From: Escherichia coli
GTDB lineage: Bacteria > Pseudomonadota > Gammaproteobacteria > Enterobacterales > Enterobacteriaceae
Assembly (NCBI RefSeq): GCF_965641715.1
Contig: NZ_OZ282453.1
Length of the DNA stretch: 64,000 bases
Strand: one strand, 5' to 3'
Translations under genes and position numbers: made by a program
In this document: positions 9,785 to 45,829 of the stretch, piece after piece
Numbering within the stretch: the first letter of the stretch is position 1
How the letters are laid out: the number at the start of each line of letters is the position of its first letter
The notes under the pieces: generated by a model
Told to the model about the DNA's origin: nothing
Database searches by the model: none
The model's input: only the letters and a program-made list of their open reading frames with translations

Positions 9785-9840
9785 GTTTGTTTCCTTAAGT
9801 GACTTTAGTACAGTACCCGTACTGTTTTCACGCTGTCAAC
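9785..9840 (-). promoter_or_regulatory. pheL-pheA promoter region (-35 TTGACA at 9834..9839)
   Basis: Minus strand gTTGACAgcgtgaaaacagtacgggTACTGTACTAAAgtc upstream of pheL; the -10 choice is ambiguous. Confidence 0.6.
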
Positions 9841-9865
9841 AAAAAACGCGCCCGAAGGTGCGTTG
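9839..9865. repeat. attL core
   Basis: acaaaaaacgcgcccgaaggTgcgttg; 26/27 identical to 45803..45829. Confidence 0.85.
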
Positions 9866-9951: not shown

Positions 9952-10941
9952 TTATGTGGATGAAATGTGGATGCCTCCTTTTAACGGATTAAGTGAAATT
10001 GCATCCTGGAGGAAATCAGGAGCGAGGTGCGCATAGGTCATAGTTTGCTGGATCGTGGCGTGCCCCATAATTCGCTGGAGCGTAAGTATATTTCCTCCAT
10101 TAATCATAAAGTGAGCTGCAAAGGTATGGCGTAGAACATGTACTGCCTGCCCTTTTGGTAGATCAGGTTTAACACTGCGAAGCACCTTGCGATATTCCTC
10201 ATAATTGACGTCAAACAAAAGGCCGGATTTCTTTGTTTTGATCTCGCTAACAACTTCATCAGAGACAGGAATAATTCGAACTTTTCCGTTTTTAGTTTTG
10301 TTAAACGTCACGCGGTTATTGATGATGTGTTCCGCGCGCAGATTTTTCGCTTCTCCCCATCTCGCACCAGTACTGAGACAAAGTAGCGTAATCCGCCGGG
10401 CATCACCGCTTACTGCATCCAGTAATTTGGCAATTTCTTCCGTGGTGAGATACGTCATTTCGGGTGATTTTCGTTTCAAAGAGGGGAGGGCGCGGAGCGG
10501 ATTTTCTCCGTGAAATTCCCCGGCATTTGCCAGGAGTGTAAACATTCCTCCGAGATCCGACTCATCACGCCGAACAGTAGACTCTTTTACTCCCAAAGAT
10601 AAACGGGAGCTTCGATAAGCGGCCATGAAACGAGCATTAATCTGGCTAACCCTTGGATCATTCATTTCTTTGATGATTTTTTTCAACCTGGTTAGAACGC
10701 CGTTAGCATATGGCTTATTGCGTCCACCCAATTCCCACCATAACGGAAGCAGATCTGAGAGATGACGTTGCTCTGTTGGCTTTTCAAGCCATTCCTTATC
10801 GTGCATGTGGCTGAGAACATAACGCTCAAAGGCCACTGCATCTGCCTTTTTCTTAAAAATCCGCTGAATCCGACGTCCACTTCGGCCACGCGGTCTAACA
10901 TCCACTTTATACCGTCCACCATCGAGTGCTTTAATTGCCAT
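9952..10941 (-). CDS. int: Tyrosine recombinase / phage integrase
   Basis: C-terminal catalytic motifs (ARWGEA..., HVLRHTFAAHF, GHATIQQTMTYAHL); ATG 10941 has a ggaggg RBS, while the ORF-track start 10974 has none. Confidence 0.9.
   Translation of the reverse strand: MAIKALDGGRYKVDVRPRGRSGRRIQRIFKKKADAVAFERYVLSHMHDKEWLEKPTEQRHLSDLLPLWWELGGRNKPYANGVLTRLKKIIKEMNDPRVSQINARFMAAYRSSRLSLGVKESTVRRDESDLGGMFTLLANAGEFHGENPLRALPSLKRKSPEMTYLTTEEIAKLLDAVSGDARRITLLCLSTGARWGEAKNLRAEHIINNRVTFNKTKNGKVRIIPVSDEVVSEIKTKKSGLLFDVNYEEYRKVLRSVKPDLPKGQAVHVLRHTFAAHFMINGGNILTLQRIMGHATIQQTMTYAHLAPDFLQDAISLNPLKGGIHISST
9954..9973 (+). repeat. Candidate Int arm-type sites (2 x ATGTGGATG, 11-bp phasing)
   Basis: atgtggatg at 9954-9962 and 9965-9973; matching TGTGGA pair near attR (45743-45762). 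Confidence 0.45.
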
Positions 10942-11007
10942 TGGCAAGCCCTCCGGTGAAACGAGGAAAGACATTTCCAGTTTGTAAAACGTAAGAATAA
11001 TAAAGGG

Positions 11008-14049: not shown

Positions 14050-14141
14050 GAAACCAGAGCATGCACACACAAAAAAACCGCTTGCCATGCCGCAATCAGT
14101 CAGGTTACATTTTCGCTGCACCTCATAAAACGGGTGCCGGG

Positions 14142-14166
14142 TTTCGCAGCCTGCTGACAACCAAAG
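14142..14166 (+). promoter_or_regulatory. Upstream target boxes a1 (tttcgcagc) and b1 (caaccaaag) for the c4-like RNA
   Basis: Complementary to 14287-14293 and 14272-14280 respectively. Confidence 0.5.
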
Positions 14167-14232
14167 CGCACAACCGCGCCAGCGGTTTTTTTGTGCGTAC
14201 TGTATTGCCACGTTTTTTTCGCGTCAGAATTA

Positions 14233-14314
14233 TGGCGGGGCGTACGGGGCCGACTTCGGTCGGGCCGGGTTCTTTGGTTGCCGGTACTGCGAACCCCGTA
14301 CGTCTCGCCACCCA
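14233..14314 (+). ncRNA. P1 c4-like antisense regulatory RNA (~80 nt)
   Basis: 16-17 bp terminal helix (14233-14249 / 14294-14310) followed by ACCCA; UUCG-tetraloop hairpin 14250-14263; second hairpin whose 12-nt loop carries b'; single-stranded a' 14287-14293. Confidence 0.55.
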
Positions 14315-14317
14315 CAG

Positions 14318-15046: not shown

Positions 15047-17869
15047 ATGACGGCAGAGTACATCAGGGACTGGCAACAACCGCGCCACGCAGTGGGACGT
15101 GAAGGAACGGGGATCCCCGTTCCTGAATCCGCGCTTTCCTCCTGGCTGGATGCCTACCGGGCAGAGAACGAGCGCCGCCAGGAAATGGCTGATGCGGCGT
15201 TCTCCGCCACGCCGCTGGGCAACCTGATTAATAAAAGCCTGGATGCACAGGAAAAACAGGACAAAACCATCACACTGGCAGGAGACGCCAGAAAACAGGT
15301 ACGCGGTGCGGTGGATGAAGCCATGGCCTCGCTGCGCCTGCTGCCGTCCTATCTGCGCGATCCGCTTATTCGCCACCTCTCCTTCCTGCGCAAAAAACAG
15401 GAAGCCGATCGCCGGAAAGGCAAAAAGAGCTGGCAGGCTGAACGCTACGCGCGCGGAACCCTGCGCAAAATATTCGAACGTCTGGACCGCACCGACCACC
15501 GCTGGCTGACACCGGGTTATCGCTCCCTTGCCGGACGCGAACGCCTGGATGATTTGCTTTACCTGCCGCAGCTCAACAAGCACCAGATACAGACGCTGGC
15601 CACCATGACGGCGGCGATGTTCAGCAGCACCTTCGAAAAACTCTGCGATGGCTTTGGCGCGACTGATGGCGAGCTGACCATGGATGTAACGCTGAAGGCG
15701 TATCAGATGCTGGCCCGCATGGCGTTACACCTGCACGCCATGCCTCCGCATTATGATGCACTGACAACAGACAAAGACCGGAGGAACGAACCGGACACGG
15801 AGCTGCTGCCGGGCGCAATCCTTCGCCTGACCTGTGCGGAATGGTGGAAACGCAAACTGTGGCTGTTACGTTGCGAGTGGCGGGAAGAACAACTCCGCGC
15901 CGCCTGTCTGGTTTCCAGAAAAACATCGCCCTATCTGAGCCAGGACGCGTTAAGCGAGTTTCGCGCACAGCGCGAGAAAACACGCGATTTCCTGAAAAGT
16001 TTCATGCTGGAAAACGAAGACGGGTTCACGATTGATCTCGAGACGGTGTATTACGCGGGAGTAAGTAACCCGGTTCATCGTAAGGCAGAAATGATGGCCA
16101 CCATGAAGGGGCTGGAACTTCTGGCCGAAGCCCGTGGCGACAAAGCGGTGTTTCTGACTGTCACCTGCCCGTCAAAATACCACGCCACAACAGAGAACGG
16201 TCATCCGAATCCCAAATGGAACGGGGCCACCATGCGCGACTCCAGCGATTACCTGGTTAACACGTTTTTTGCGGCGGTCCGCAAGAAACTGAACCGCGAC
16301 GGCCTGCGCTGGTATGGCATCCGCACGGTGGAGCCTCACCATGACGGCACCGTGCACTGGCATATGATGGTCTTTGCTCATCCGGAAGAAATCGACACCA
16401 TTGTGTCCCACACCCGCGATATTGCCATTCAGGAAGATCGTCACGAGCTGGGTGATGATATTACCCCACGCTTTAAGGCGGAGTACGTCGACGGCTCAAA
16501 AGGCACACCGACCAGCTACATCGCCACCTACATCGGGAAAAACCTGGACAGCCGTGCCGTGGATGGCATCGACCCGAAAACGGGCAAGCCACGCGTTGAC
16601 CACGAAACCGGAAAATCAATGGCCGAGAGCGTGGAACGCGCCATCGGCTGGGCGCGCCTTCATCGGGTCCGCCAGTTCCAGTTCTTTGGCATCCCCTCCC
16701 GTCAGGTGTGGCGTGAACTGCGCCGCCTTGCCAGCCAGATGGCTCGCAACCCGGAAGGACCGCAACGGCTGAAGGATGACGCAATGGACGCGGTTCTTGC
16801 TGCCGCTGATGCCGGATGTTTTGCCACCTACATAGAGAAACAGGGCGGCGTACTTGTTCCACGCAAGGACTACCTGATTCGCACCGCCTACGACCTCGCA
16901 GATGAGCTGAACGATTACGGTGAACAGAGCGTACAGATTTACGGGATCTGGTCACCGCTCATCGGGGAGTCTTCCCGCGTATGCACGCATCCGGACAACT
17001 GGAAGCTGGTAAGACGCAAACCGGAAGCGGAAGACAGCGCCCGCGAAAATGGTTTTGACCTTCAGGGCGGCCCTGCCGCCCCTTGGACTCGTGGCAATAA
17101 CTGTCCCCGTGTACAGGAAACAGGCAACAGCGGGACAGAACAGTCGAAAGAACGGCCAGCACCGTGGCCGCAGCTTCCTGACGGCGTTGACGTGAACGAA
17201 TGGATGCGCTCACTGAAACGGCACGAACGCCGGGCGCTGATGCGTTCGCTTCGTGACAAACAGGCAAAAAACAGCAGTGATGAAATGCAGAGCTGGACAC
17301 AGAGCCGCAAACAGCCACGGCCTTTGCCTGATAACCACGAATTACTCGCTAAAGAATGGCGGGAGTCTGCTGAATCTCTCGGCCTGCATATCGGTGAACA
17401 ACAGATGCAGCACCTGTTACGGGGCGGCAGTCTGTACGTTGACGGCAGCATCATTGCACCGCAGGGATTTGAAATTGTACGCAAACCGGATACCCGCCCG
17501 GACAGCCGAATCACGCAGCTCTGGCAGCGCCTGAGCCGTAATCATGGCGTAAGCAGCACGGAGATCCGCCATAACCCGGTCGCCAGCTATCTGGCACAGC
17601 TGGGGGCATCAGACCCTGAAGCCGCCGCACGCCTGGCATCCACACTTCAGCAGGACCAGAACACCATGAAAACACCCGTTACCGTGCTTTCTGACATGCT
17701 GCGCGCCATCCGCGACGCAGAGCACGCACAGAGAATCAGTGAAACCACTGAACGCGCCAGCCGCAAAGCAGACCTGCTGCGGGGTGGCCTGACCAGTGGA
17801 AACAAAAAACAGACAGAAACGGGATTCACAAATCCCATAAATGAGCAAAAAACGTGCCGCGATATATGA
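15047..17869 (+). CDS. A: P2 gpA-type rolling-circle replication initiator (HUH endonuclease) with a long C-terminal extension
   Basis: HUH-like VHWHMMVF and YIATYIGK tyrosine motif; 940 aa versus ~760 aa remembered for P2 A. Confidence 0.85.
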   Translation: MTAEYIRDWQQPRHAVGREGTGIPVPESALSSWLDAYRAENERRQEMADAAFSATPLGNLINKSLDAQEKQDKTITLAGDARKQVRGAVDEAMASLRLLPSYLRDPLIRHLSFLRKKQEADRRKGKKSWQAERYARGTLRKIFERLDRTDHRWLTPGYRSLAGRERLDDLLYLPQLNKHQIQTLATMTAAMFSSTFEKLCDGFGATDGELTMDVTLKAYQMLARMALHLHAMPPHYDALTTDKDRRNEPDTELLPGAILRLTCAEWWKRKLWLLRCEWREEQLRAACLVSRKTSPYLSQDALSEFRAQREKTRDFLKSFMLENEDGFTIDLETVYYAGVSNPVHRKAEMMATMKGLELLAEARGDKAVFLTVTCPSKYHATTENGHPNPKWNGATMRDSSDYLVNTFFAAVRKKLNRDGLRWYGIRTVEPHHDGTVHWHMMVFAHPEEIDTIVSHTRDIAIQEDRHELGDDITPRFKAEYVDGSKGTPTSYIATYIGKNLDSRAVDGIDPKTGKPRVDHETGKSMAESVERAIGWARLHRVRQFQFFGIPSRQVWRELRRLASQMARNPEGPQRLKDDAMDAVLAAADAGCFATYIEKQGGVLVPRKDYLIRTAYDLADELNDYGEQSVQIYGIWSPLIGESSRVCTHPDNWKLVRRKPEAEDSARENGFDLQGGPAAPWTRGNNCPRVQETGNSGTEQSKERPAPWPQLPDGVDVNEWMRSLKRHERRALMRSLRDKQAKNSSDEMQSWTQSRKQPRPLPDNHELLAKEWRESAESLGLHIGEQQMQHLLRGGSLYVDGSIIAPQGFEIVRKPDTRPDSRITQLWQRLSRNHGVSSTEIRHNPVASYLAQLGASDPEAAARLASTLQQDQNTMKTPVTVLSDMLRAIRDAEHAQRISETTERASRKADLLRGGLTSGNKKQTETGFTNPINEQKTCRDI

Positions 17870-17917
17870 AGCGCGCACAAAACAGGCAAAAGCGGGATTT
17901 AAAAATCCTGTAAACGA
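17802..17917 (+). repeat. Two ~42-bp imperfect direct repeats, each with a palindrome (candidate parC / ParR operator)
   Basis: acaaaaaacagacagaaacGGGATTCACAAATCCCataaatga (17802-17844) versus acaaaacaggcaaaagcGGGATTTAAAAATCCtgtaaacga (17877-17917). Confidence 0.35.
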
Positions 17918-17945
17918 TTAATTAATCAACATAAGGAAAAGCGAC

Positions 17946-18905
17946 ATGAAAATTTGTATCGACGACGGCTCCACCAACATCAAGCTGGCATGGACTGAGA
18001 ACGGCGAACGCCGCAACGCCATCAGCCCGAACAGCTTCAAGTCGGAATGGTCTGCGCCGTTCGGTGGCTCGCAGCCCGCGAACTACATGCTTGATGGCGT
18101 GCGCTATGGTTTTGATCCGGTCAGCGATCGCTTTGTCCAGACGACCGACACGCAATACCAGTACAGCGATGTGAATGTCATTGCCATTCATCACGCGCTG
18201 GTCAAATCAGGCATCACGCCACAGGAGGTGGATGTGGTTGTCACCCTGCCATTGAGCGAGTATTTCGACACAAACGCACAGCCGGACATGGCCAACATCA
18301 GCCGCAAAAAAGCGAACGTTATGCGCCCGGTGGAGTACCAGAACGGCGAAACATTCACTATCCGTAACGTACGGGTTATGCCTGAATCCATTCCGGCTGG
18401 CTTTAAAGCACTGGCTGACATGAGTCCGCTTGAATCCCTGCTGATTGTGGATTTGGGCGGAACCACACTGGATGTGGCAAAGGTTCAGGGGCAACTGGCA
18501 GGTATCAGCCAGGTGTTTTGCGATCCACACGTAGGCGTTTCCCTGATGGCCGATGCCGTACTGTCGGTGATGGCCACTAACGGTATGCGTATCAGTCACC
18601 ACATCGCCAATACCATTATCGAACATCGCCATGATGAAGCCTGGTTGCGCCAGCACATCCACAATGACGCGCATTACGCCAGCCTGATGGCGGTTATTCG
18701 TGAAAAGGAAGAAACACTGAAACAACGCGTGATCCGCGCGCTGGCGGTTTTTTCGGGTTACGGGCGGGTGATGGTTGTCGGTGGCGGGGCGGAGATTGTG
18801 GCACCCGCTATCCGCGAAGCCTGCGGAGTTAATGCGACTTTCATCGCGGACGGGGTGCCACAGTTTGCTCTGGTTAATGGGCTGTACGCAATGGACAAGG
18901 AGTAA
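17946..18905 (+). CDS. parM: ParM/StbA actin-like plasmid-segregation ATPase
   Basis: Full-length similarity to remembered R1 ParM (IDDGSTNIKL, ISPNSFK, YSDVNVIAIHHAL, RKKAN, VMPESIPAG, DLGGTTLD, GGGAE). Confidence 0.85.
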   Translation: MKICIDDGSTNIKLAWTENGERRNAISPNSFKSEWSAPFGGSQPANYMLDGVRYGFDPVSDRFVQTTDTQYQYSDVNVIAIHHALVKSGITPQEVDVVVTLPLSEYFDTNAQPDMANISRKKANVMRPVEYQNGETFTIRNVRVMPESIPAGFKALADMSPLESLLIVDLGGTTLDVAKVQGQLAGISQVFCDPHVGVSLMADAVLSVMATNGMRISHHIANTIIEHRHDEAWLRQHIHNDAHYASLMAVIREKEETLKQRVIRALAVFSGYGRVMVVGGGAEIVAPAIREACGVNATFIADGVPQFALVNGLYAMDKE

Positions 18906-18909
18906 ACCA

Positions 18910-19221
18910 ATGACGACTCCAACCAGACGGATAAGTTTCTATCTGAAGCCCGCCGCCGTCAAGAACGAAGGTGAAGCATGCGCCTGGCTGGACAGCCTTA
19001 CACCAGAAGCGCGCAAAAGCGGCCAACGCGTGGCTTTTCTGGCCGGGCTGGCACTTCTGAAAATGAATCCGGCAGAGGCTTACCGACTGGCTGCATGGGC
19101 TGATGATGAAGCGTTATCAGTGACACAAACCAGGACAGAACGCCCCGCGTCACAGCCAGTATCAACCGCACAGATAACCAGTCAGATGGCCGGAAATATC
19201 CGGGCGTTATTTCCCGAATAA
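18910..19221 (+). CDS. parR: ParR-like centromere-binding adaptor
   Basis: ATG 18910 follows aaggag, 4 nt after the parM stop; ISFYLKP...LDSLTPEARKSGQRVAFLAGLAL and C-terminal IRALFPE resemble R1 ParR. Confidence 0.7.
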   Translation: MTTPTRRISFYLKPAAVKNEGEACAWLDSLTPEARKSGQRVAFLAGLALLKMNPAEAYRLAAWADDEALSVTQTRTERPASQPVSTAQITSQMAGNIRALFPE

Positions 19222-19284
19222 CACAACATCAGGGCGCATCCGCCCTGATGACTTTAACCCGGGAACATAAACAAGGGGGACACA

Positions 19285-19620
19285 ATGCAACGCATTGACA
19301 GAGAAAAAGCGCAGCGACTGATTGAGCGGATGGAAGCGCTGGCGAAAGAAGAAAATGTCAACATCCAAAAAATAGCTGAATGTGGCCAGATAGTTCTTCG
19401 TCGTGAAAAAGACCTCAAACAACTGATGTCTGGCGAAACCAGCAAAACATGGACTTCAGGTGAGGAGACGATTTATTGCAGCTTCTGCAATAAATCCCAG
19501 TACGAAGTCACAAAGGTGATTGCCGGACCGTCTGTTTACATCTGCAATGAGTGCGTTGATTTGTGCAATGAAGTTATCAGGAGAGAAGTGACAGACCATG
19601 AAGAAAAAACGCATGAATGA
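19285..19620 (+). CDS. Orphan ClpX N-terminal zinc-binding-domain (zf-C4_ClpX) protein with no AAA+ module
   Basis: Residues ~60-101, [39 protein letters not shown], versus E. coli Clp[40 protein letters not shown]. Confidence 0.85.
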
Positions 19621-19786
19621 CGAATTTGACGGCTTTTAATTTTATCGGGGCGCACTGTCGCCCTGCATGGAGAAAAACAATAAAAAAGATGAATAACTGC
19701 TCATGTCAGACGCGCTGCGGGCAAGTCTGGCACCCTGCCCTGTCTCCGCAAAGGCTGTTGTCTTAACACGACAGAGTATGCCAGCA

Positions 19787-20194
19787 TTAAATATAATCTT
19801 CTTCGTAGTCGCTGATTAATTCATTGCCATAATCAGACAGCAATTTCAAAGCAAAGGTAACTTCCTCAAGGGTAGCTATCCCCATTGCTGAAAACACCGT
19901 TAATTTAACCAGCAGCAGGGAGTTTGAAAGTTCGGAAGAGTTCATCATTAAAAATATTGATGCAGCCTGAAAAGCTGTGCGTTTATTCCCATCATGAAAG
20001 GCATGAGCCTTGGCTATACCAATCAAATACATAGCAGCCAGAGCATGAATATCATCAACCCCTTCATAGTAGTGTAGTGTCCTGACGCGATTTAAAGCAC
20101 CTTCAAGTAGCCCGTCATTGGCATTTCCGCTCTGGGGTAAAGTTTCAGCATGGATACGTTCTACTTGTTCTTTTGACAAAAACACTATGTCCAT
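19787..20194 (-). CDS. doc: Doc (death-on-curing) Fic-fold toxin
   Basis: Doc signature HAFHDGNKRTAF; 135 aa; start overlaps the antitoxin stop (TGATG). Confidence 0.85.
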   Translation of the reverse strand: MDIVFLSKEQVERIHAETLPQSGNANDGLLEGALNRVRTLHYYEGVDDIHALAAMYLIGIAKAHAFHDGNKRTAFQAASIFLMMNSSELSNSLLLVKLTVFSAMGIATLEEVTFALKLLSDYGNELISDYEEDYI

Positions 20195-20550
20195 CAGTTA
20201 TCCTCAAGCTTTTTAATGATATCCGCATGTTTTTCTCTTGTACGCTTCATTGCATCTTCAAAAGACAATCCTTTTTTTCTCTGTGCGACAAGAGCTGGAT
20301 GACGTTTTTCCAGATCTCTCACTGCATTTATTAAGAGTGGTTGCTTCATTTTGTTTATTTGATCCCGCAGTTTTTTGGTTTTGCCAAGGACAGCCCGTAT
20401 TTCAGGACTAAGATCAGAACCAGCAAGAACAACATCCTTCCCTCCCTGCGCCGTGATAACGACACTGCCACCGGAAGAAAGGTAATCCAGAATTTCACTC
20501 AGGTTCTCACGAAATTCATCATCAGTTACAGTTTTCATATTCATTTCCAT
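20194..20550 (-). CDS. Phd/YefM-type antitoxin (extended C-terminus)
   Basis: Upstream of and coupled to doc; N-terminus MKTVTDDEFRENLSEILDYLSSGGSVVIT is Phd/YefM-like; the true start may be 20538. Confidence 0.7.
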   Translation of the reverse strand: MEMNMKTVTDDEFRENLSEILDYLSSGGSVVITAQGGKDVVLAGSDLSPEIRAVLGKTKKLRDQINKMKQPLLINAVRDLEKRHPALVAQRKKGLSFEDAMKRTREKHADIIKKLEDN

Positions 20551-20624
20551 TATGCACGCCCATAACGTAAGTATAACGGCTTGTTGGGCAGTAATAACAC
20601 CGCCATATTTTCATTTTATACACC

Positions 20625-20650
20625 GCACAATAGTGCACAAATTTGCACAA
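20625..20650 (-). promoter_or_regulatory. 3 x TTGTGC (GCACAA on the plus strand) at exact 10-bp phasing next to TATAAAAT: candidate phd-doc promoter/operator
   Basis: gcacaa at 20625, 20635 and 20645; minus strand reads TTGTGCaaatTTGTGCactaTTGTGCggtgTATAAAAT. Confidence 0.45.
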
Positions 20651-20746
20651 TTTTTTTGAACAACTTTTTACCCTTCCGGCCCGCGTGGCGACTGGATCCG
20701 TCAAGGATCCGTGCGTGCACAAAAAAACGCGTTTTTTCTGCGCGCA

Positions 20747-20765
20747 GGTGACGGGGGAACAGCCC
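20747..20765. other. Candidate cos cohesive-end sequence
   Basis: GGTGACGGGGGAACAGCCC versus remembered P2 cos GGCGAGGCGGGGAAAGCAC (about 12/19), ~310 bp beyond the end of Q as in P2. Confidence 0.3.
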
Positions 20766-21074
20766 GCGTTTCAGGGGGTAAATAGCATTCCCTGAACGAT
20801 GTCGCAGCGACACAACAGAATGGCTGTATTTCTCACACTGAGCGTGAAAAAGGCGTGAGGGCTTTTGATTTGATGGGGTGACAGATAAGGCCGTCAAAAT
20901 CGCACTGAGGCGGCAAGAACATGCAGTCAACGCGGTGGGATTGCGTAAGAGCCTGACCGTCGATGATGGCGATAAGCTGGAAGACGTCGTGAAATTATCT
21001 GATTGATACAGGAGCTGGAGAGTCGGGGCATAAATTTTTTATGCCCCGGCGAAGCAGCAGACAAGCGAAGCGCG

Positions 21075-22121
21075 TCAGGATGTGGGCTGGGTGTCCAGCA
21101 GTGCGTAAGGGTTAAAGCGGATCACCTCTTCGCCAAGCCAGTCATTGATATGCTTCATGGCCTCCATGACGGGCATCAGCTCGTTAATTGCGTAAACCCG
21201 CGCTGCCTTCTCCACATCACCAAACGCACTTTTTTCGCCCGGCATCGCCCCCATCAGTTGCGGCGGAACGCGGTGCGCAGCCAGCACATCATCACGGGAT
21301 GCCGCCTTAACATTCATGAACTCATCCTTTGCGGTGATCTGCTGGAACGGCAAAATTTGCACACCTTCTTTGCCCCCGTTGGGCGCGTGAATGAGCACGT
21401 TTTTAAATGCACCACCACCACGCGCACCCTGTAGCGTTTCCTTCAGGGAGTCCATGCTTTCGCGGTTTACCTGCGCTGCACCGATGTAGATGATGCACCC
21501 GGCGTGGGATCCATTGTCGTAGTACAGTTTTCTGAACATGTCCGCCGAATGAGACAGGCTGGCCGAGAGTAATGCGCCAAGATATTCCGGCATGCCGTAA
21601 ATTTCCTGGTTAATGTCCGGATTCATCAGGTGGCACACTTTGCCAGGGCGAAACTGAAACGCGTCCTTGCCATCCTGCACATACCACCATGATTCAAGAT
21701 CGCTTCCGCGTCGCATGTATTTCGCCAGTGCGTGCCGTAATTTAAGTGGTTCGCCGAGCATATTGCTCCGAAGCTCAAGGAATGCGTTACCGAACACAAA
21801 CCAGTCCAGCGCCAGCGCCGAGAAATCCTGCCGGGAAAGCAGCGGGTGCGGGATGTAGCAACCGAGCAATACATTGCGCTTAAAGTAAAGCGCAGACTGA
21901 TGCCAGGACGTTTGCCGGGCGGCTCTTGCCAGACCGTACCAGTCCACCGGGGTTTCATACCACCGCCCGTTATCAGCACAGTACATATTGTCCAGCAGGT
22001 CATGCCCGGTCAGGCGGTAAGGACCATCAAATGTGAATGCACTGAGCGACGATTCTTTCCTGAGCGCATCAGCGAGATCAATGCGTGAACTCATGCGCAC
22101 TTTTTTATTTTTTCTGCTCAT
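21075..22121 (-). CDS. Q: Portal protein (P2 gpQ-like)
   Basis: 348-aa ORF upstream-coupled to the terminase gene; P2 Q-P orientation. Confidence 0.85.
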   Translation of the reverse strand: MSRKNKKVRMSSRIDLADALRKESSLSAFTFDGPYRLTGHDLLDNMYCADNGRWYETPVDWYGLARAARQTSWHQSALYFKRNVLLGCYIPHPLLSRQDFSALALDWFVFGNAFLELRSNMLGEPLKLRHALAKYMRRGSDLESWWYVQDGKDAFQFRPGKVCHLMNPDINQEIYGMPEYLGALLSASLSHSADMFRKLYYDNGSHAGCIIYIGAAQVNRESMDSLKETLQGARGGGAFKNVLIHAPNGGKEGVQILPFQQITAKDEFMNVKAASRDDVLAAHRVPPQLMGAMPGEKSAFGDVEKAARVYAINELMPVMEAMKHINDWLGEEVIRFNPYALLDTQPTS

Positions 22122-34847: not shown

Positions 34848-35381
34848 TCATTCAGGTTGTTCGGGAAATGTTACTGGCAGGCTGGAGGTGTCTGTAGATT
34901 CGACTTTCTGCGCATAGAGCATCCACTCGGTTAATTTTTGTTTATTCTCGTCGGAAATGATGCCCAGCCGTAGCTGTGAGTCCCATAGCTGGGTTTTATC
35001 CCTAACGAGCTGTAGCAGGCTTTGCTTTTCATTTTCCGCCTGCTGCCTCTGCTCTTCCTCGGTATAAGTTCGCTTTACCACTACGCCATCTTTGAACATC
35101 CATTTACCAGAAATATCAGCCCGGCGATTTGCTGTAATATCAGGAACCTCAACGACGCTTGCGCCTTCTGGATTAATTGCTGAAACATCCTTTTCAATAC
35201 AAATAATAACGTTGTTGTGGTCATAGACCATTTTCAACGTATCAGGCTGAAAGTTCTTTTGTTCCTCATACCAGTTTTTCCCATCCTCTGTATAAAGCCA
35301 TTTGATGTTAAATTGTTTCGTTAGCTGGTATTGCTCTTTTGTTTTAGGGTTGCCAGCAGTAATATTTTTTAAGTGCATCAT
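34848..35381 (-). CDS. Alternative tail fibre assembly chaperone (U'-like), silent orientation
   Basis: 177 aa; N-terminal ~110 aa nearly identical to 34289..34819; divergent C-terminus. Confidence 0.85.
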
Positions 35382-35383
35382 AA

Positions 35384-36335
35384 TTAAATACTCCCCGCGT
35401 TATACCACGTCCCATTAATGCAATACTGAATTGGCCTTGCCTGAGTTGTATCAATTAATTCATCACGGTTTCCGTTAACTGAACCCGTAACGACATAACC
35501 TGACCTGTCAGACCAGCCGGGACCATTCCATGTCTGAACAGATGACAGACCGCCAAGGCGAATACCTGTAATAAACCTTGAGTTACATTCTGCCTGCGTG
35601 TATGCACCAACATCTCCCGCAGAGGGTTTGCGGGTCGTGGTGTAAAACTCTGACCAGTTAGCCTCAAATCCATAACCATCACGCGCTGAACGATAAAAAA
35701 TACCGCCGTTCCTGTAATTCACGCGGAACTGTACAGCAGGGCAGCTCCCCGTATTCATATTGAAGTGGAGGATTAATGTCGATGCACCGCTGATATCTGC
35801 ATCATAAACACCGCTATTCCAGTTCCAGCCAACAGCTTTATCATTTGCAACCCTGCTTCCTGTTTGCCCTAAAGCAAATGCAGGCTGCTGGTTTTTCGTG
35901 TTGTAGTCTCTTCGCCAGCCAGGAGCATAAGCATCACCATGATTAATATAAGTGAATTGAGCGTTAGAGGTGCCGCCTCCGGTGGAAGTGCTTGGTGTTG
36001 TTACACGGATGGTCATGGCACCTTTATTACCCATAACCTCAATAACGCAACCTGCAAGATGAATAGTTCCACAGCCAGTATCGGTAATAATTTTATTATT
36101 GCCGTATGACCATGAACATTTGCACATCCAGTATGGGTGATTGAATGCCCCTTGAGAATCCAGCCATTCAATCAATTGTGCCGTTGTCCAGTTCCCTGCC
36201 CCTGTACTAATAGCACTGTGAAAAGCGCGACATGCACCAATATTTTTTGTGAAGGTATCTTTTCCTGGAATATCTGCGCCGTTCTGGTTTTTCTGTAATG
36301 CGCCAGAAGCCTGATTTACCGTTTCTTGTAAACCG
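35384..36335 (-). CDS. Alternative tail-fibre C-terminal segment (S'-like), promoterless and start-less in this orientation
   Basis: Open frame runs from the crossover centre (36335/36336) to the stop at 35384; after inversion it joins the H frame as ...[29 protein letters not shown]... Confidence 0.8.
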
Positions 36336-36348
36336 AGGTTTTAGATAA
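36323..36348 (-). repeat. Right recombination site (gix/cix-like)
   Basis: ttcttgtaaaccgaggttttagataa, the inverted copy of 33258-33283. Confidence 0.8.
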
Positions 36349-36402
36349 TGGCCGTTTCTGACCTGCATGGCATGATTTACGCTTTTGGACGGGAGATTCA
36401 GC

Positions 36403-36990
36403 GTGCTGATTGGCTATGTAAGGGTATCAACAAATGACCAGAATACAGACCTGCAACGAAACGCTCTTGTTTGTGCAGGATGTGAACAAATATTTGAAGA
36501 TAAATTAAGCGGGACAAAGACAGACCGACCGGGATTAAAACGCGCTTTAAAGCGTCTTCAAAAAGGTGACACGCTGGTTGTCTGGAAACTGGATCGCCTC
36601 GGGCGAAGCATGAAACATCTGATTTCTCTCGTCGGGGAACTACGGGAGCGAGGGATTAATTTTCGCAGTCTGACCGACAGCATAGATACATCTTCTCCAA
36701 TGGGGCGTTTTTTCTTCCACGTGATGGGTGCCCTGGCTGAAATGGAACGTGAATTAATTGTTGAACGTACACTGGCCGGACTGGCAGCAGCGCGCGCACG
36801 GGGGCGCACAGGCGGACGTCGCCCGAAGCTGACAAAAGAACAGCATGAGCAAATAGCAAGGCTGATTAAAAACGGTCACGACAGAAAACAACTGGCAATA
36901 ATTTACGGCATTGGTACATCGACGATTTATCGTTACCACCCCGCAGGAGAATCAAGCGGAGCAATAGAGAAGAGTCAGAAAACAAAATAA
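36403..36990 (+). CDS. Serine DNA invertase (Gin/Cin/Hin/Pin family)
   Basis: (GTG)LIGYVRVSTNDQNTDLQRNAL..., catalytic Ser, C-terminal HTH; GTG 36403 follows gggag. Confidence 0.9.
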   Translation: MLIGYVRVSTNDQNTDLQRNALVCAGCEQIFEDKLSGTKTDRPGLKRALKRLQKGDTLVVWKLDRLGRSMKHLISLVGELRERGINFRSLTDSIDTSSPMGRFFFHVMGALAEMERELIVERTLAGLAAARARGRTGGRRPKLTKEQHEQIARLIKNGHDRKQLAIIYGIGTSTIYRYHPAGESSGAIEKSQKTK

Positions 36991-44171: not shown

Positions 44172-44259
44172 CAGGCAGAATTGCCGGAGTAACAAAAAAG
44201 CGATAGATTACGCGCGGGTGCCTTTCGGCTGATGGTCGGAGGGAATACCCGAAGGCCAG

Positions 44260-44496
44260 ATGTGGAAAGGCCCCGGAAAACATTTCTGTTTAACCGAGGC
44301 CCTAACACTTCTTACCTTCGCAAGTAGAAGGTTAGCGCCTCTCCTCTCAGGAGACAAGCGTTATGACGCAAATTCCGTTAAAAACCCTGTTACTTTGCAT
44401 AACTGCGGTAGCGATAATCTGGATCCTCCACACATCACCGTGCGAGTTACGATTCAGGTTTGCTGGCACGGAAATTGCGGCATTCTTACTATGTAA
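44260..44496 (+). CDS. mok-like overlapping reading frame of the hok-type locus
   Basis: ATG 44260 follows gaagg; overlaps the whole toxin ORF in another frame, as mok does in R1 hok/sok. Confidence 0.4.
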   Translation: MWKGPGKHFCLTEALTLLTFASRRLAPLLSGDKRYDANSVKNPVTLHNCGSDNLDPPHITVRVTIQVCWHGNCGILTM

Positions 44497-44503
44497 TAAG
44501 TAA
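44363..44503 (+). CDS. Hok/Gef-family type I toxin, 46 aa (not in the ORF track)
   Basis: MTQIPLKTLLLCITAVAIIWILHTSPCELRFRFAGTEIAAFLLCNK: TM helix plus the CE(L/I)R...E(V/I)AAF signature shared with HokA/HokB/Hok-R1; the SD aggaga is sequestered in tctcct-ctc-aggaga. Confidence 0.75.
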   Translation: MTQIPLKTLLLCITAVAIIWILHTSPCELRFRFAGTEIAAFLLCNK

Positions 44504-44512
44504 GATAACCGC

Positions 44513-44534
44513 GACGGGGGAGTAATCCCCCGTC
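44513..44534 (+). other. GC-rich hairpin at the 3' end of the hok-like mRNA
   Basis: gacggggg agtaat cccccgtc. Confidence 0.5.
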
Positions 44535-44590
44535 AATCGGTTGCTAAGGTTGGTCGAAACGGCATCCTATCTCACAGACATGAACAACAA

Positions 44591-44623
44591 ACCCGCAGCG
44601 TAAAAACTGCGGGTTTTCTTTTT
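44591..44623 (+). terminator. Intrinsic terminator
   Basis: acccgcag / ctgcgggt stem followed by tttctttttg. Confidence 0.75.
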
Positions 44624-44664
44624 GCTACCCTCACAAATGAGGGCACCATACATAAGCAATAGGC

Positions 44665-44715
44665 ATAACAGATCGATGCAATAAATCCGATCGATAAAAA
44701 CGATCGATTTGTTAT
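44665..44715 (+). promoter_or_regulatory. Dyad-symmetric region with three GATCGAT (Dam GATC) sites upstream of the com-like gene
   Basis: gatcgat at 44671, 44689 and 44702; outer arms ataacagatcgat / atcgatttgttat. Confidence 0.6.
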
Positions 44716-44752
44716 CATATCGGCAGCAGTAACCACACAAGAGGTGCCGCAA

Positions 44753-44950
44753 ATGACGCAAAATGTACGATGCAAAAATTGCAACAAACTACTTGCCCGC
44801 GCCTCATTTCACTACATTGAAATAAAATGTCCGCGCTGCAAAACACTTAACCAGATAACGAGAGCCATCGAGCACCCCACACACATGAGGAGTTATGACC
44901 GTGGGGATCGCAATCCAGCACCAACCAGCACATACGCCAGAACACACTAA
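44753..44950 (+). CDS. com: Mu Com-like zinc-finger translational regulator
   Basis: MTQNVRCKNCNKLLARASFHYIEIKCPRCKTLNQITRAIEHPT versus Mu Com MKSIRCKNCNKLLFKADSFDHIEIRCPRCKRHIIMLNACEHPT; aagaggtg RBS. Confidence 0.85.
   Translation: MTQNVRCKNCNKLLARASFHYIEIKCPRCKTLNQITRAIEHPTHMRSYDRGDRNPAPTSTYARTH
44875..44906 (+). promoter_or_regulatory. Stem-loop enclosing the SD and ATG of the methyltransferase gene
   Basis: CCCCAC (44875-44880) / GTGGGG (44901-44906) flank gaggag and ATG 44895. Confidence 0.5.
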
Positions 44951-45701
44951 GGTTTATCAGACTGACAATGTCACGCTCTGTTGTGGGAATGCACTGGAAA
45001 TATTGCCGCTGATTGAGCCAGAAAGCATTGATGCCTTAATCACTGACCCGCCTTACAGTTCGGGTGCGACACACAAGGCCGGACGCACCAATCAGGGCAG
45101 CCATGCAAAATATCTGAACGGCGAGAACCTTCACCGCTTTGATGGGTTCGCGGGTGAAAACATGGACGCCCGTTCGTGGGCTTACTGGACACAATTATGG
45201 ATGGCACAGGCACACCGCGCAGTCAGGCCAGGCGGTTATGCCATGGTATTTACTGACTGGCGACAACTACCAGCTTTAACCGATGCGTTTCAGGCCAGTG
45301 GCTTTACATGGCGCGGCATCATTGCGTGGAACAAGGGGAGGGGGTCACGAACACCACATACCGGGTATTTCCGGCATCAGTGCGAATACATCGTCTGGGG
45401 CAGCAAAGGCCATTTAGATAAATCGCCTTCGGGGCCGTTCGACGGCTGCATGACGTACCCGGTTATCCCGTCAAAGAAAATGCACCCGACCGGAAAACCA
45501 GAAGAACTAATGGCGGAACTGGTCAGGACTGTGAATAGTGGCGGAACAGTCCTTGATCCTTTTATGGGGTCAGGGACAACGGGTGTGGCTGCACTGAAAG
45601 CAGGGCGAAAATTTATTGGTATAGAAACCAGTGATCATTATTTTGAGGTAGCAGCGCAGCGGCTTCGGGGGACTATTACCACAACCATTTCGGCTACATA
45701 A
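44895..45701 (+). CDS. Beta-class N6-adenine/N4-cytosine DNA methyltransferase
   Basis: Motif IV DPPY (res 51-54) lies N-terminal to motif I VLDPFMGSGTTG; the start lies 56 nt inside the com-like ORF. Confidence 0.85.
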   Translation: MTVGIAIQHQPAHTPEHTKVYQTDNVTLCCGNALEILPLIEPESIDALITDPPYSSGATHKAGRTNQGSHAKYLNGENLHRFDGFAGENMDARSWAYWTQLWMAQAHRAVRPGGYAMVFTDWRQLPALTDAFQASGFTWRGIIAWNKGRGSRTPHTGYFRHQCEYIVWGSKGHLDKSPSGPFDGCMTYPVIPSKKMHPTGKPEELMAELVRTVNSGGTVLDPFMGSGTTGVAALKAGRKFIGIETSDHYFEVAAQRLRGTITTTISAT

Positions 45702-45802: not shown

Positions 45803-45829
45803 ACAAAAAACGCGCCCGAAGGCGCGTTG
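45803..45829. repeat. attR core, which is also the functional raiA intrinsic terminator
   Basis: acaaaaaacgcgcccgaaggCgcgttg; minus strand reads caacgcgccttcgggcgcgttttttgt. Confidence 0.85.

Follow-up and report, generated by a model that had tools for sequence, protein, structure and literature searches.

An R1-type partition cassette in the gpA-gpQ hot spot of an integrated P88-like prophage of Escherichia coli: a possible role in the handling of circular phage DNA

Phages P1, which carries ParAB and phd-doc, and D6, whose partition system is of the ParM/StbA type, possess plasmid replicons and do not integrate into the chromosome. In plasmid R1 the parC site of the ParMRC partition system consists of ten 11-bp iterons. 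Proteins of a comparable kind are described for an integrated prophage as well: in CGP3 of Corynebacterium glutamicum (AlpA, AlpC and alpS) the actin-like AlpC and its adaptor AlpA are induced early, AlpA binds DNA in front of the operon that encodes it, and the excised circle replicates efficiently only with both proteins present (PMC4446434). In P2-like phages the gpA-gpQ locus is a hot spot of genetic variation and is enriched in anti-phage systems (PMC9122126). Of the P88-like phages, P88 itself was induced from a chromosomal prophage of strain K88 (PMC5285337), and phiSM was shown experimentally to lysogenise K-12 through integration at pdxB (PMC6456863). The present analysis concerns a stretch of 64,000 nucleotides of Escherichia coli (contig NZ_OZ282453.1 of assembly GCF_965641715.1; this whole stretch is called the window), which holds a P88-like prophage with genes for ParM, ParR, a stand-alone ClpX zinc-binding domain (ZBD), Phd and Doc between gpA and gpQ.

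The explanation that we consider the best overall, with somewhat more confidence than doubt, is that this region is a gpA-gpQ hot spot occupied by three separate cassettes, of which parMRC acts on circular phage genomes, and that no stable plasmid prophage is involved. Both the gene arrangement and the idea of plasmid maintenance are already known from the literature, and the finding is mostly corrective: the "toolkit" for plasmid maintenance proposed in an earlier, sequence-only reading of this DNA is a lineage-standard cassette together with unrelated morons in a known hot spot. Added here are the candidate cis sites, the edge of the cassette inside the end of gene A, the purifying selection, the phage-specific clade of ParM and the count of chromosomal against plasmid copies.

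The parMRC cassette

The cassette and gene A in front of it consist of the following elements.

15047-17869, plus strand: gpA, rolling-circle replication initiator, 940 aa (Phage_GPA 2.3e-131)
17803-17844: parC-like repeat 1 (42 nt), inside the 3' end of gene A, holding the palindrome ACGGGATTCACAAATCCCAT
17876-17917: parC-like repeat 2 (42 nt), 73 bp after repeat 1 and ~30 bp before the start of parM, holding the palindrome GCGGGATTTAAAAATCCTGT
17946-18905, plus strand: parM, actin-like segregation ATPase of the R1 type (Pfam StbA_N 4e-82, ParM C-terminal domain 3.5e-68)
18910-19221, plus strand: parR/stbB adaptor, 103 aa (Plasmid_stab_B 4e-24; PHROG partition protein 1e-58)
19227-19250: perfect 10-bp inverted repeat after parR and before the ZBD gene, roughly at the right edge of the cassette

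ParM aligns over its full length (residues 2-316) with R1 ParM (PDB 1mwk; E=7.5e-94, 47% identity), and its nucleotide/phosphate-binding motifs IDDGST, MPESIPAG and DLGGTTLD line up with that protein. The true start of parR is at 18910, 4 nt past the stop codon of parM; the start at 18775 given by the mechanical list of open reading frames (ORFs) is wrong. A sequence search with ParR found no homologue of solved structure. Its constant parts are the first 18 residues (MTTPTRRISFYLKPAAVK) and the C-terminal NIxxxFPE, and the middle of the protein splits into at least three alleles. In R1 ParR the parts expected to be constrained are the DNA-binding strand and the ParM-binding tail, and conserved termini with a divergent middle would fit this division. 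The alleles (window 18910-19221 compared with loci L006 and L011) differ across the middle of ParR although nucleotide identity in parM remains at 97-98%, and about half of the E. coli matches reach only the first ~55 nt of parR.

Seven loci from E. coli, E. albertii, Salmonella and phage P88 were compared. The pairwise ratio of nonsynonymous to synonymous substitution (dN/dS) of parM is 0.01-0.2, with dS up to 0.2, and the reading frame of parM is intact in all seven copies. The sequence evidence thus speaks for a functional parMRC under strong purifying selection. The genes parMR are present in 1306 of 5426 complete E. coli genomes (24%), and in a sample of 40 spread records the matches are annotated as ParM/ParR in 39. 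Within the phage lineage the pair is near-fixed: there are ~1307 records with parM against ~1395 with P88-like flanks at ≥90% identity, which gives a rough estimate of 94%. A search of genome contigs with the single ParM protein returned three near-identical loci; a query made from an alignment would reach further.

The ParM of this lineage stands apart from that of plasmids. At least 5000 plasmids carry ParM homologues, and outside the P88-like records all of them (4994/4994) are less than 60% identical, the closest among the matches listed being ~53%. Closer plasmid matches occur only in six records, all of which contain P88-like DNA. Among 50,697 phage records such a ParM was found only in the P88 group and in the P1-like phage-plasmid D6 (47.5% identity). 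Homology to the parMR-less relatives stops inside the 3' end of gene A, and the last ~25 codons of this gene are part of the parMRC cassette. The two relatives without parMR and this homology break mark parMR as a swappable hot-spot cassette, yet one that is old and specific to the phage lineage.

The two 42-nt repeats are the obvious candidate for parC or for an operator. Each contains a palindrome of ~20 bp with the consensus ACGGGATTnnnnAATCCCGT, and the pattern GGGATTNNNNAATCC has just two matches in the 64-kb window, namely the two repeats. Both are kept in all seven aligned parMR-carrying loci and, by pattern scan, in an eighth; they are absent from two parMR-less relatives. The variants of the central spacer of the palindrome do not track the ParR alleles, so they provide no co-variation argument. 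The possibility that the palindromes are RNA hairpins or terminators of gene A was rejected on account of the lack of a T-run, the conservation of the 42-nt units beyond the stems and the strict co-occurrence with parMR.

The gap between A and parM is 76 bp long. No sigma-70-like site better than 7/12 was found upstream of parM, no plus-strand terminator was found between A and parM, and Rfam gave no RNA family over 17600-21100 even at E ≤1. Since parMR lies on the same strand as A with no recognisable promoter or terminator in between, it probably belongs to the early replication operon; orf91 of P2 is a parallel for such an arrangement.

The prophage and the cargo of its hot spot

The element is an intact, chromosomally integrated P88-like prophage (Xuanwuvirus, Peduoviridae, P2 family) of ~36 kb. 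Its ends, its integrase and the features to the right of parMRC are listed below.

9839-9858: attL core, 20-bp direct repeat ACAAAAAACGCGCCCGAAGG, the longest exact repeat common to both prophage ends; left end, adjoining the presumed pheA
9952-10974, minus strand: tyrosine integrase (Pfam Int_N 5.6e-23, Phage_integrase 3.7e-17)
19285-19620, plus strand: stand-alone ClpX ZBD protein, 111 aa (zf-C4_ClpX 3e-17)
19787-20194, minus strand: doc, Fic-fold death-on-curing toxin (Fic 3.5e-11; TIGR01550 DOC_P1 2.3e-14)
20194-20550, minus strand: phd-family antitoxin (Phd-like PHROG 4e-5); RefSeq relatives start at the equivalent of 20538
20605-20700: conserved right boundary of the hot spot, including a terminator-like palindrome at 20633-20648
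21075-22121, minus strand: portal gene gpQ, right flank of the hot spot (annotation of a matching relative; P88 layout)
44216-44503, plus strand: hok/sok-like type I toxin locus, with the Hok ORF at 44363-44503 and an overlapping mok-like ORF at 44260-44496
45803-45822: attR core, second copy of the 20-bp direct repeat; right end, adjoining the presumed raiA

The integrase and the two copies of the repeat (9839 and 45803) speak for an integrated prophage that is intact, and the reading frames of the tail fibre, the invertase, D and ogr are full-length. The left flank we take to be pheA by ORF length and gene order only, and the right flank is presumably raiA, as recognised from the start of the ORF translation. 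The site in the pheA/raiA interval differs from pdxB, which is occupied by phiSM and by the prophage of the RefSeq relative RM10740. The hot spot of RM10740 is 100% identical to that of the window, and identity over 11 kb is 99.1%; gene A is annotated 15 nt shorter there. P88-like phages match the hot-spot block at 94-98% nucleotide identity.

All the modules named in the sequence-only reading (parMR, phd-doc, hok, A, the ClpX-ZBD gene, the integrase and the att repeat) are present at or near the positions where it had placed them. Their combination, which that reading implied to be special to this prophage, is not: the 940-aa A, parMR, the ZBD gene and hok all occur in phage P88, and the extension of A and the other three modules are therefore lineage-standard. 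The extension itself had been described as ~180 aa at the C-terminus of A. The length of 940 aa is right, but size and placement have to be revised: P2 gpA (761 aa) aligns to residues 77-800 with 30% identity, and of the surplus ~140 aa lie at the C-terminus and a net ~35 aa at the N-terminus.

The interval 17.8-20.6 kb is the cos-proximal variable gpA-gpQ region of P2-like phages. Precisely this arrangement (StbA + Plasmid_stab_B + zf-C4_ClpX + Fic + PhdYeFM) has an entry in the examined part of Table S5 of Rousset et al. 2022 (PMC9122126), where the accessions of Phd, ParR and the ZBD protein are those of the RefSeq relative matching the hot spot of the window. In the same part of that table StbA is named 489 times, ClpX 43 times and Phd 10 times (PMC9122126). 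Partition and Doc do not come up in a follow-up of 2026 on P2/P4 hot spots. 

parMRC, the ZBD gene and phd-doc appear to be three separate cassettes and not one island, because their distributions differ: parMR is found in 1306 genomes and the phd-doc allele in 19, P88 and many E. coli prophages have the ZBD gene but no phd-doc, and parMR occurs without the ZBD gene in an ST131-type relative, where it is followed by a DUF4760 gene and hypothetical genes. In a further relative the ZBD gene is decayed and the distal slot holds a toxin of the YafO family. The place of parMR itself is taken in two close relatives by other systems, namely a PD-Lambda-5_B-like methylase (8e-122) with an ATPase in locus L009 (4059-6619) and IetA/IetS (9e-78, 3e-51) in locus L010 (3434-6804); the portal protein accession of both these parMR-less prophages is that of RM10740. 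The view that the cargo forms one functional island, to which the position of the ClpX-ZBD gene between the partition and addiction modules had given rise, is contradicted by these distributions. The related view that the modules are co-opted hot-spot cargo for defence or exclusion holds as to location, the locus being gpA-gpQ with defence systems there in relatives, but not as to a single island. In PADLOC-DB v2 no match was found for ParM, ParR, the ZBD protein, Phd or Hok, and Doc gave weak matches only, to the candidate models PDC-S23 and PDC-M59B (E from 1e-5 to 6e-4).

Doc of the window scores 53.6 bits with TIGR01550 (cutoff 38.65) and matches P1 Doc with E=6e-13; its Fic motif HxFxDxNKR is intact, HAFHDGNKR being aligned to HIFNDANKR. 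The assignment of Phd is closer to the limits of detection, with 29.2 bits for PhdYeFM, just below the Pfam cutoff of 29.8, and 16.6 against 20.8 for NCBIfam; a relative of this protein is named Phd/YefM antitoxin in RefSeq. phd lies upstream of doc and its stop codon overlaps the start of doc. The pair is on the strand opposite to parMR, has moderate promoter candidates and is oriented in the same way as tin and old, the lysogenic-conversion genes of P2. The DNA specific to phd-doc comprises only ~845 bp (about 19762-20605), and ~1100 genomes match the phd-doc query just over a stretch of ~80 nt, at the right boundary of the hot spot. All 19 copies among the 5426 genomes are at least 99.5% identical, which points to one recent acquisition; ~98.5% of the parMR-carrying genomes lack phd-doc. 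Most likely it is addiction or abortive-infection cargo expressed from the lysogen.

The ZBD protein is composed of an N-terminal part of ~60 aa (PHROG 6797, unknown function) and the C-terminal ZBD. It matches the N-domain structure of E. coli ClpX (1ovx) with E=2e-19, and by hand count on the alignment the ZBD part is ~77% identical to the ZBD of host ClpX over 44 aa. A possible effect is competition with ClpX for adaptors or substrates that depend on the ZBD. A search of the literature found no study of a phage-encoded stand-alone ClpX ZBD, and a promoter scan upstream of the gene gave nothing convincing. A homologue is located among ead/Ea22-type phage early genes of an unrelated plasmid of ~90 kb, together with Ref and Icd-like genes, and neither parMR nor phd-doc is present there. 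The ZBD gene is a phage accessory gene.

At the other end of the prophage, Hok is supported by Pfam HOK_GEF (2.5e-8, 33.8 bits with a cutoff of 22) and by a MokW-like PHROG (2.8e-13). The Rfam match to sok at 44216-44374 (E=1.8e-9, 47.4 bits) is below the gathering score of 59. The equivalent hok gene of P88 is gp52. A second variable spot is located at the attR end after ogr and hok (window 44363-45701). In the window and in the circular record pZ1323PEC0009-2 (locus L004, 110-1431) it holds a Com zinc-ribbon gene and an N6/N4 DNA methyltransferase, resembling com/mom of Mu, and in RM10740 (locus L002, 7133-8766) a zinc-ribbon gene and a gene annotated as TagO.

Several further observations concern the remainder of the prophage and its relatives. 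Two Rfam matches above the gathering score, isrK (65.9 bits) and C4 antisense RNA (87.1 bits), are located at 14118-14315 on the plus strand, inside a 205-aa ORF with a match to the Ash family and upstream of a 76-aa gene that is called "derepression protein" in the annotation of P88. This region looks like an RNA immunity/anti-repressor module of the P1/P7 c4 type or the P4 CI type in a P2-family phage. On the minus strand, the invertible tail-fibre segment (34848-36990) carries alternative genes for fibre and assembly, and a 201-aa ORF at 36385-36990 sits where P88 has its DNA invertase, which suggests host-range switching in the manner of P88. In RM10740 the IS66-family element ISCro1 follows a shortened tail-fibre gene (locus L001, 35520-38135) and the copy is probably defective, in contrast to the window prophage with its full tail fibre of 764 aa and its invertase segment. 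Finally, contig NZ_JBQPOM010000071.1 (locus L007), labelled Vagococcus sp., contains a P88-like parM 97% identical to that of E. coli; contamination or mislabelling of the assembly is more likely here than a Gram-positive host.

Possible roles of parMRC

In the explanation that we prefer, parM and parR would be expressed with the early replication operon, behind gene A. ParR would bind the two palindromic sites upstream of parM, and ParM filaments would shift or pull apart phage circles, whether excised or freshly injected, during replication. Thus parMRC would serve the extrachromosomal phase and not long-term plasmid inheritance.

The distribution of the cassette between chromosomes and plasmids bears directly on this question. 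In the 5426 complete genomes there are 1451 chromosomal places of parMR and two plasmid ones. In the plasmid collection most matching records are very large (228 kb to 1.4 Mb), and one is a linear fragment of 26.8 kb. One match that was examined, in an IncC plasmid of 228 kb, is a piece of prophage with IS26 at its borders. A different case is pZ1323PEC0009-2 (NZ_CP148288.1), a circle of 34,461 bp that is filed as a plasmid and contains an entire P88-like genome, the circle closing at the int/att junction. Over 25 kb it is 100% identical to a chromosomally integrated copy in strain Z1323HEC0067, and judging by strain names and accessions both appear to come from one sequencing project. Its gene table is without several structural genes; these may be pseudogenes arising from sequencing errors. 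The assembly may have caught an excised or replicating form here, and the record does not establish a stable plasmid state. Of the same cargo block in plasmids or in non-integrated genomes, which the sequence-only reading had proposed to look for, what was found came to two plasmid places of parMR, and one 34-kb circle identical to an integrated copy. The step from a P1-like repertoire to a phage-plasmid is not supported, given the ratio of 1451 to 2, the integration of phiSM at pdxB, and gpA as the sole replication gene identified in the prophage. No plasmid-type replicon was seen there, although not every small early ORF was scanned.

According to the phage-plasmid explanation, P88-like phages alternate between an integrated state and a low-copy plasmid, parMRC partitions the episome, and hok/sok and phd-doc kill the cells that lose it. 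Plasmid maintenance was already suggested in print by Rousset et al. 2022 (PMC9122126). The presence of a complete R1-type partition cassette under purifying selection would be easily understood in this way, as would the conservation of hok in the lineage, the circular whole-genome record filed as a plasmid, and the use of a ParM of the same family by a bona fide phage-plasmid, D6. The counts in complete genomes oppose it, however, as do the nature of the other plasmid matches (the IS26-bounded fragment, the very large records and the linear piece), the integrated state of phiSM lysogens, and the lack of any recognised replication gene apart from gpA, a rolling-circle nickase. The 34-kb circle, identical to an integrated copy over 25 kb, may be an excised or induced form, and the addiction module supposed to kill the losers is missing from ~98.5% of the carriers of parMR. 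A stable plasmid state found no support in this analysis, and we regard the phage-plasmid explanation as unlikely. 

It is a rather slight possibility that the cassette is cargo for exclusion or defence, i.e. that ParR and ParM expressed from the prophage block incoming plasmids or phages that use related partition or actin-like systems, or benefit the host otherwise. The occupation of the same slot by IetAS and a PD-Lambda-5-like system in close relatives and the enrichment of the hot spot in anti-phage systems (PMC9122126) agree with this, whereas the orientation and spacing of parMR are those of an extension of the early operon and not of a moron expressed in the lysogen such as tin/old or phd-doc. 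Moreover, ParM and ParR match no PADLOC model, the palindromic sites travel with the cassette although interference in trans needs no cis-acting site, and cross-reaction is less likely with a ParM clade at most ~53% identical to any plasmid ParM among the matches listed. That parMR is a decaying relic of a plasmid-borne ancestor, with no current function, could be argued from the ~6% of close relatives without it; the selection data contradict this, with the low dN/dS, the intact frames in 7/7 copies, the annotation as ParM/ParR in 39 of 40 records and the conservation of the cis sites and the ParR termini, and such a relic is very improbable. Hardly any weight can be given to a co-adapted island either, in which the ClpX-ZBD protein couples partition with addiction, for instance by tuning the degradation of Phd by ClpXP, and the whole block from parM to phd is selected together. 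P1 Phd is a substrate of ClpXP, the modules are adjacent in the window, and the ZBD closely resembles that of the host ClpX. On the other hand, the numbers of genomes with parMR and with the phd-doc allele (1306 and 19) and the word counts in the examined part of Table S5 are far apart, and phd-doc is missing beside the ZBD gene in P88 and many other cases, while a homologue of this gene on an unrelated plasmid has neither neighbour. The near-identity of the 19 phd-doc copies makes the co-occurrence with the ZBD gene look like one recent acquisition and not like a repeated association.

Several points weigh against the action of parMRC on phage circles as well. Two sites are far fewer than the ten iterons of R1 parC and may be an operator only. 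A weak promoter regulated by ParR may lie between the palindromes, and parMR may hence be expressed in lysogens. The likeness to AlpACS is a functional analogy only, and the literature search found no functional study (expression, localisation or deletion) of parMRC in P2-like phages. The absence of parMR from ~6% of close relatives, by rough estimate, means that it is dispensable for phage viability. The circular record pZ1323PEC0009-2 is also compatible with a persistent episome.

It is quite possible, if somewhat short of probable, that parMRC is a viral DNA-handling machine for the circles of P2-family phages during early replication or before integration, a Gram-negative counterpart of AlpACS, or else an aid to a transient plasmid-like carrier state that raises lysogenisation or transmission. 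If so, an integrating phage would be using a plasmid partition system for a dedicated task in its life cycle. P88-like prophages with parMRC are present in 24% of complete E. coli genomes. The main question is what use a phage that integrates has for an actin-type partition system, and it is cheap to answer because P88 and phiSM can be cultured and engineered.

Comparison with known systems

The cassette resembles ParMRC of R1/NR1 (stbA-stbB, type II) in the full-length homology of ParM at 47% identity and in the membership of ParR in the StbB Pfam family. The order is also that of R1, with the candidate cis site followed by parM and parR and with the repeats upstream of parM. Unlike the R1/NR1 system, it lies in an integrated prophage and has no clear promoter inside the candidate site, and the candidate centromere is made of two 42-nt units with one palindrome each, 73 bp apart, instead of iterons of the R1 kind. 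Doc of the window is related (E=6e-13) to that of P1, from which the archetypal Phd-Doc comes. In contrast to P1 and D6, the element of the window occurs as an integrated prophage, complete with integrase and att sites. With AlpACS of CGP3 it shares the setting of an integrated prophage that encodes an actin-like filament protein and a DNA-binding adaptor; the host phylum and the type of phage are different, and early expression is read here only from the arrangement of the genes.

As to the hot spot, P2 itself has orf91, tin and old between A and Q, next to cos, in the same position as the cargo of the window. The wholesale exchange of cargo among near-identical phages is shared with the P2-like hot spot in general, from which there is no essential difference: the window is one instance of the catalogued locus, with cargo that is not a recognised defence system. 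The closest counterpart is P88, in which the 940-aa A is followed by ParM, ParR, the ZBD gene, hypothetical genes, the portal gene and the terminase. The gene order and layout of the prophage are the same, including the 940-aa A, the inverted block of tail genes and hok adjoining ogr, and a difference is phd-doc, which stands where P88 has hypothetical genes. Nucleotide identity to P88 and phiSM is 97-98% over the end of gene A, parM and parR, and for P88 over the ZBD gene too. Both are viable temperate phages that originate from chromosomal prophages.

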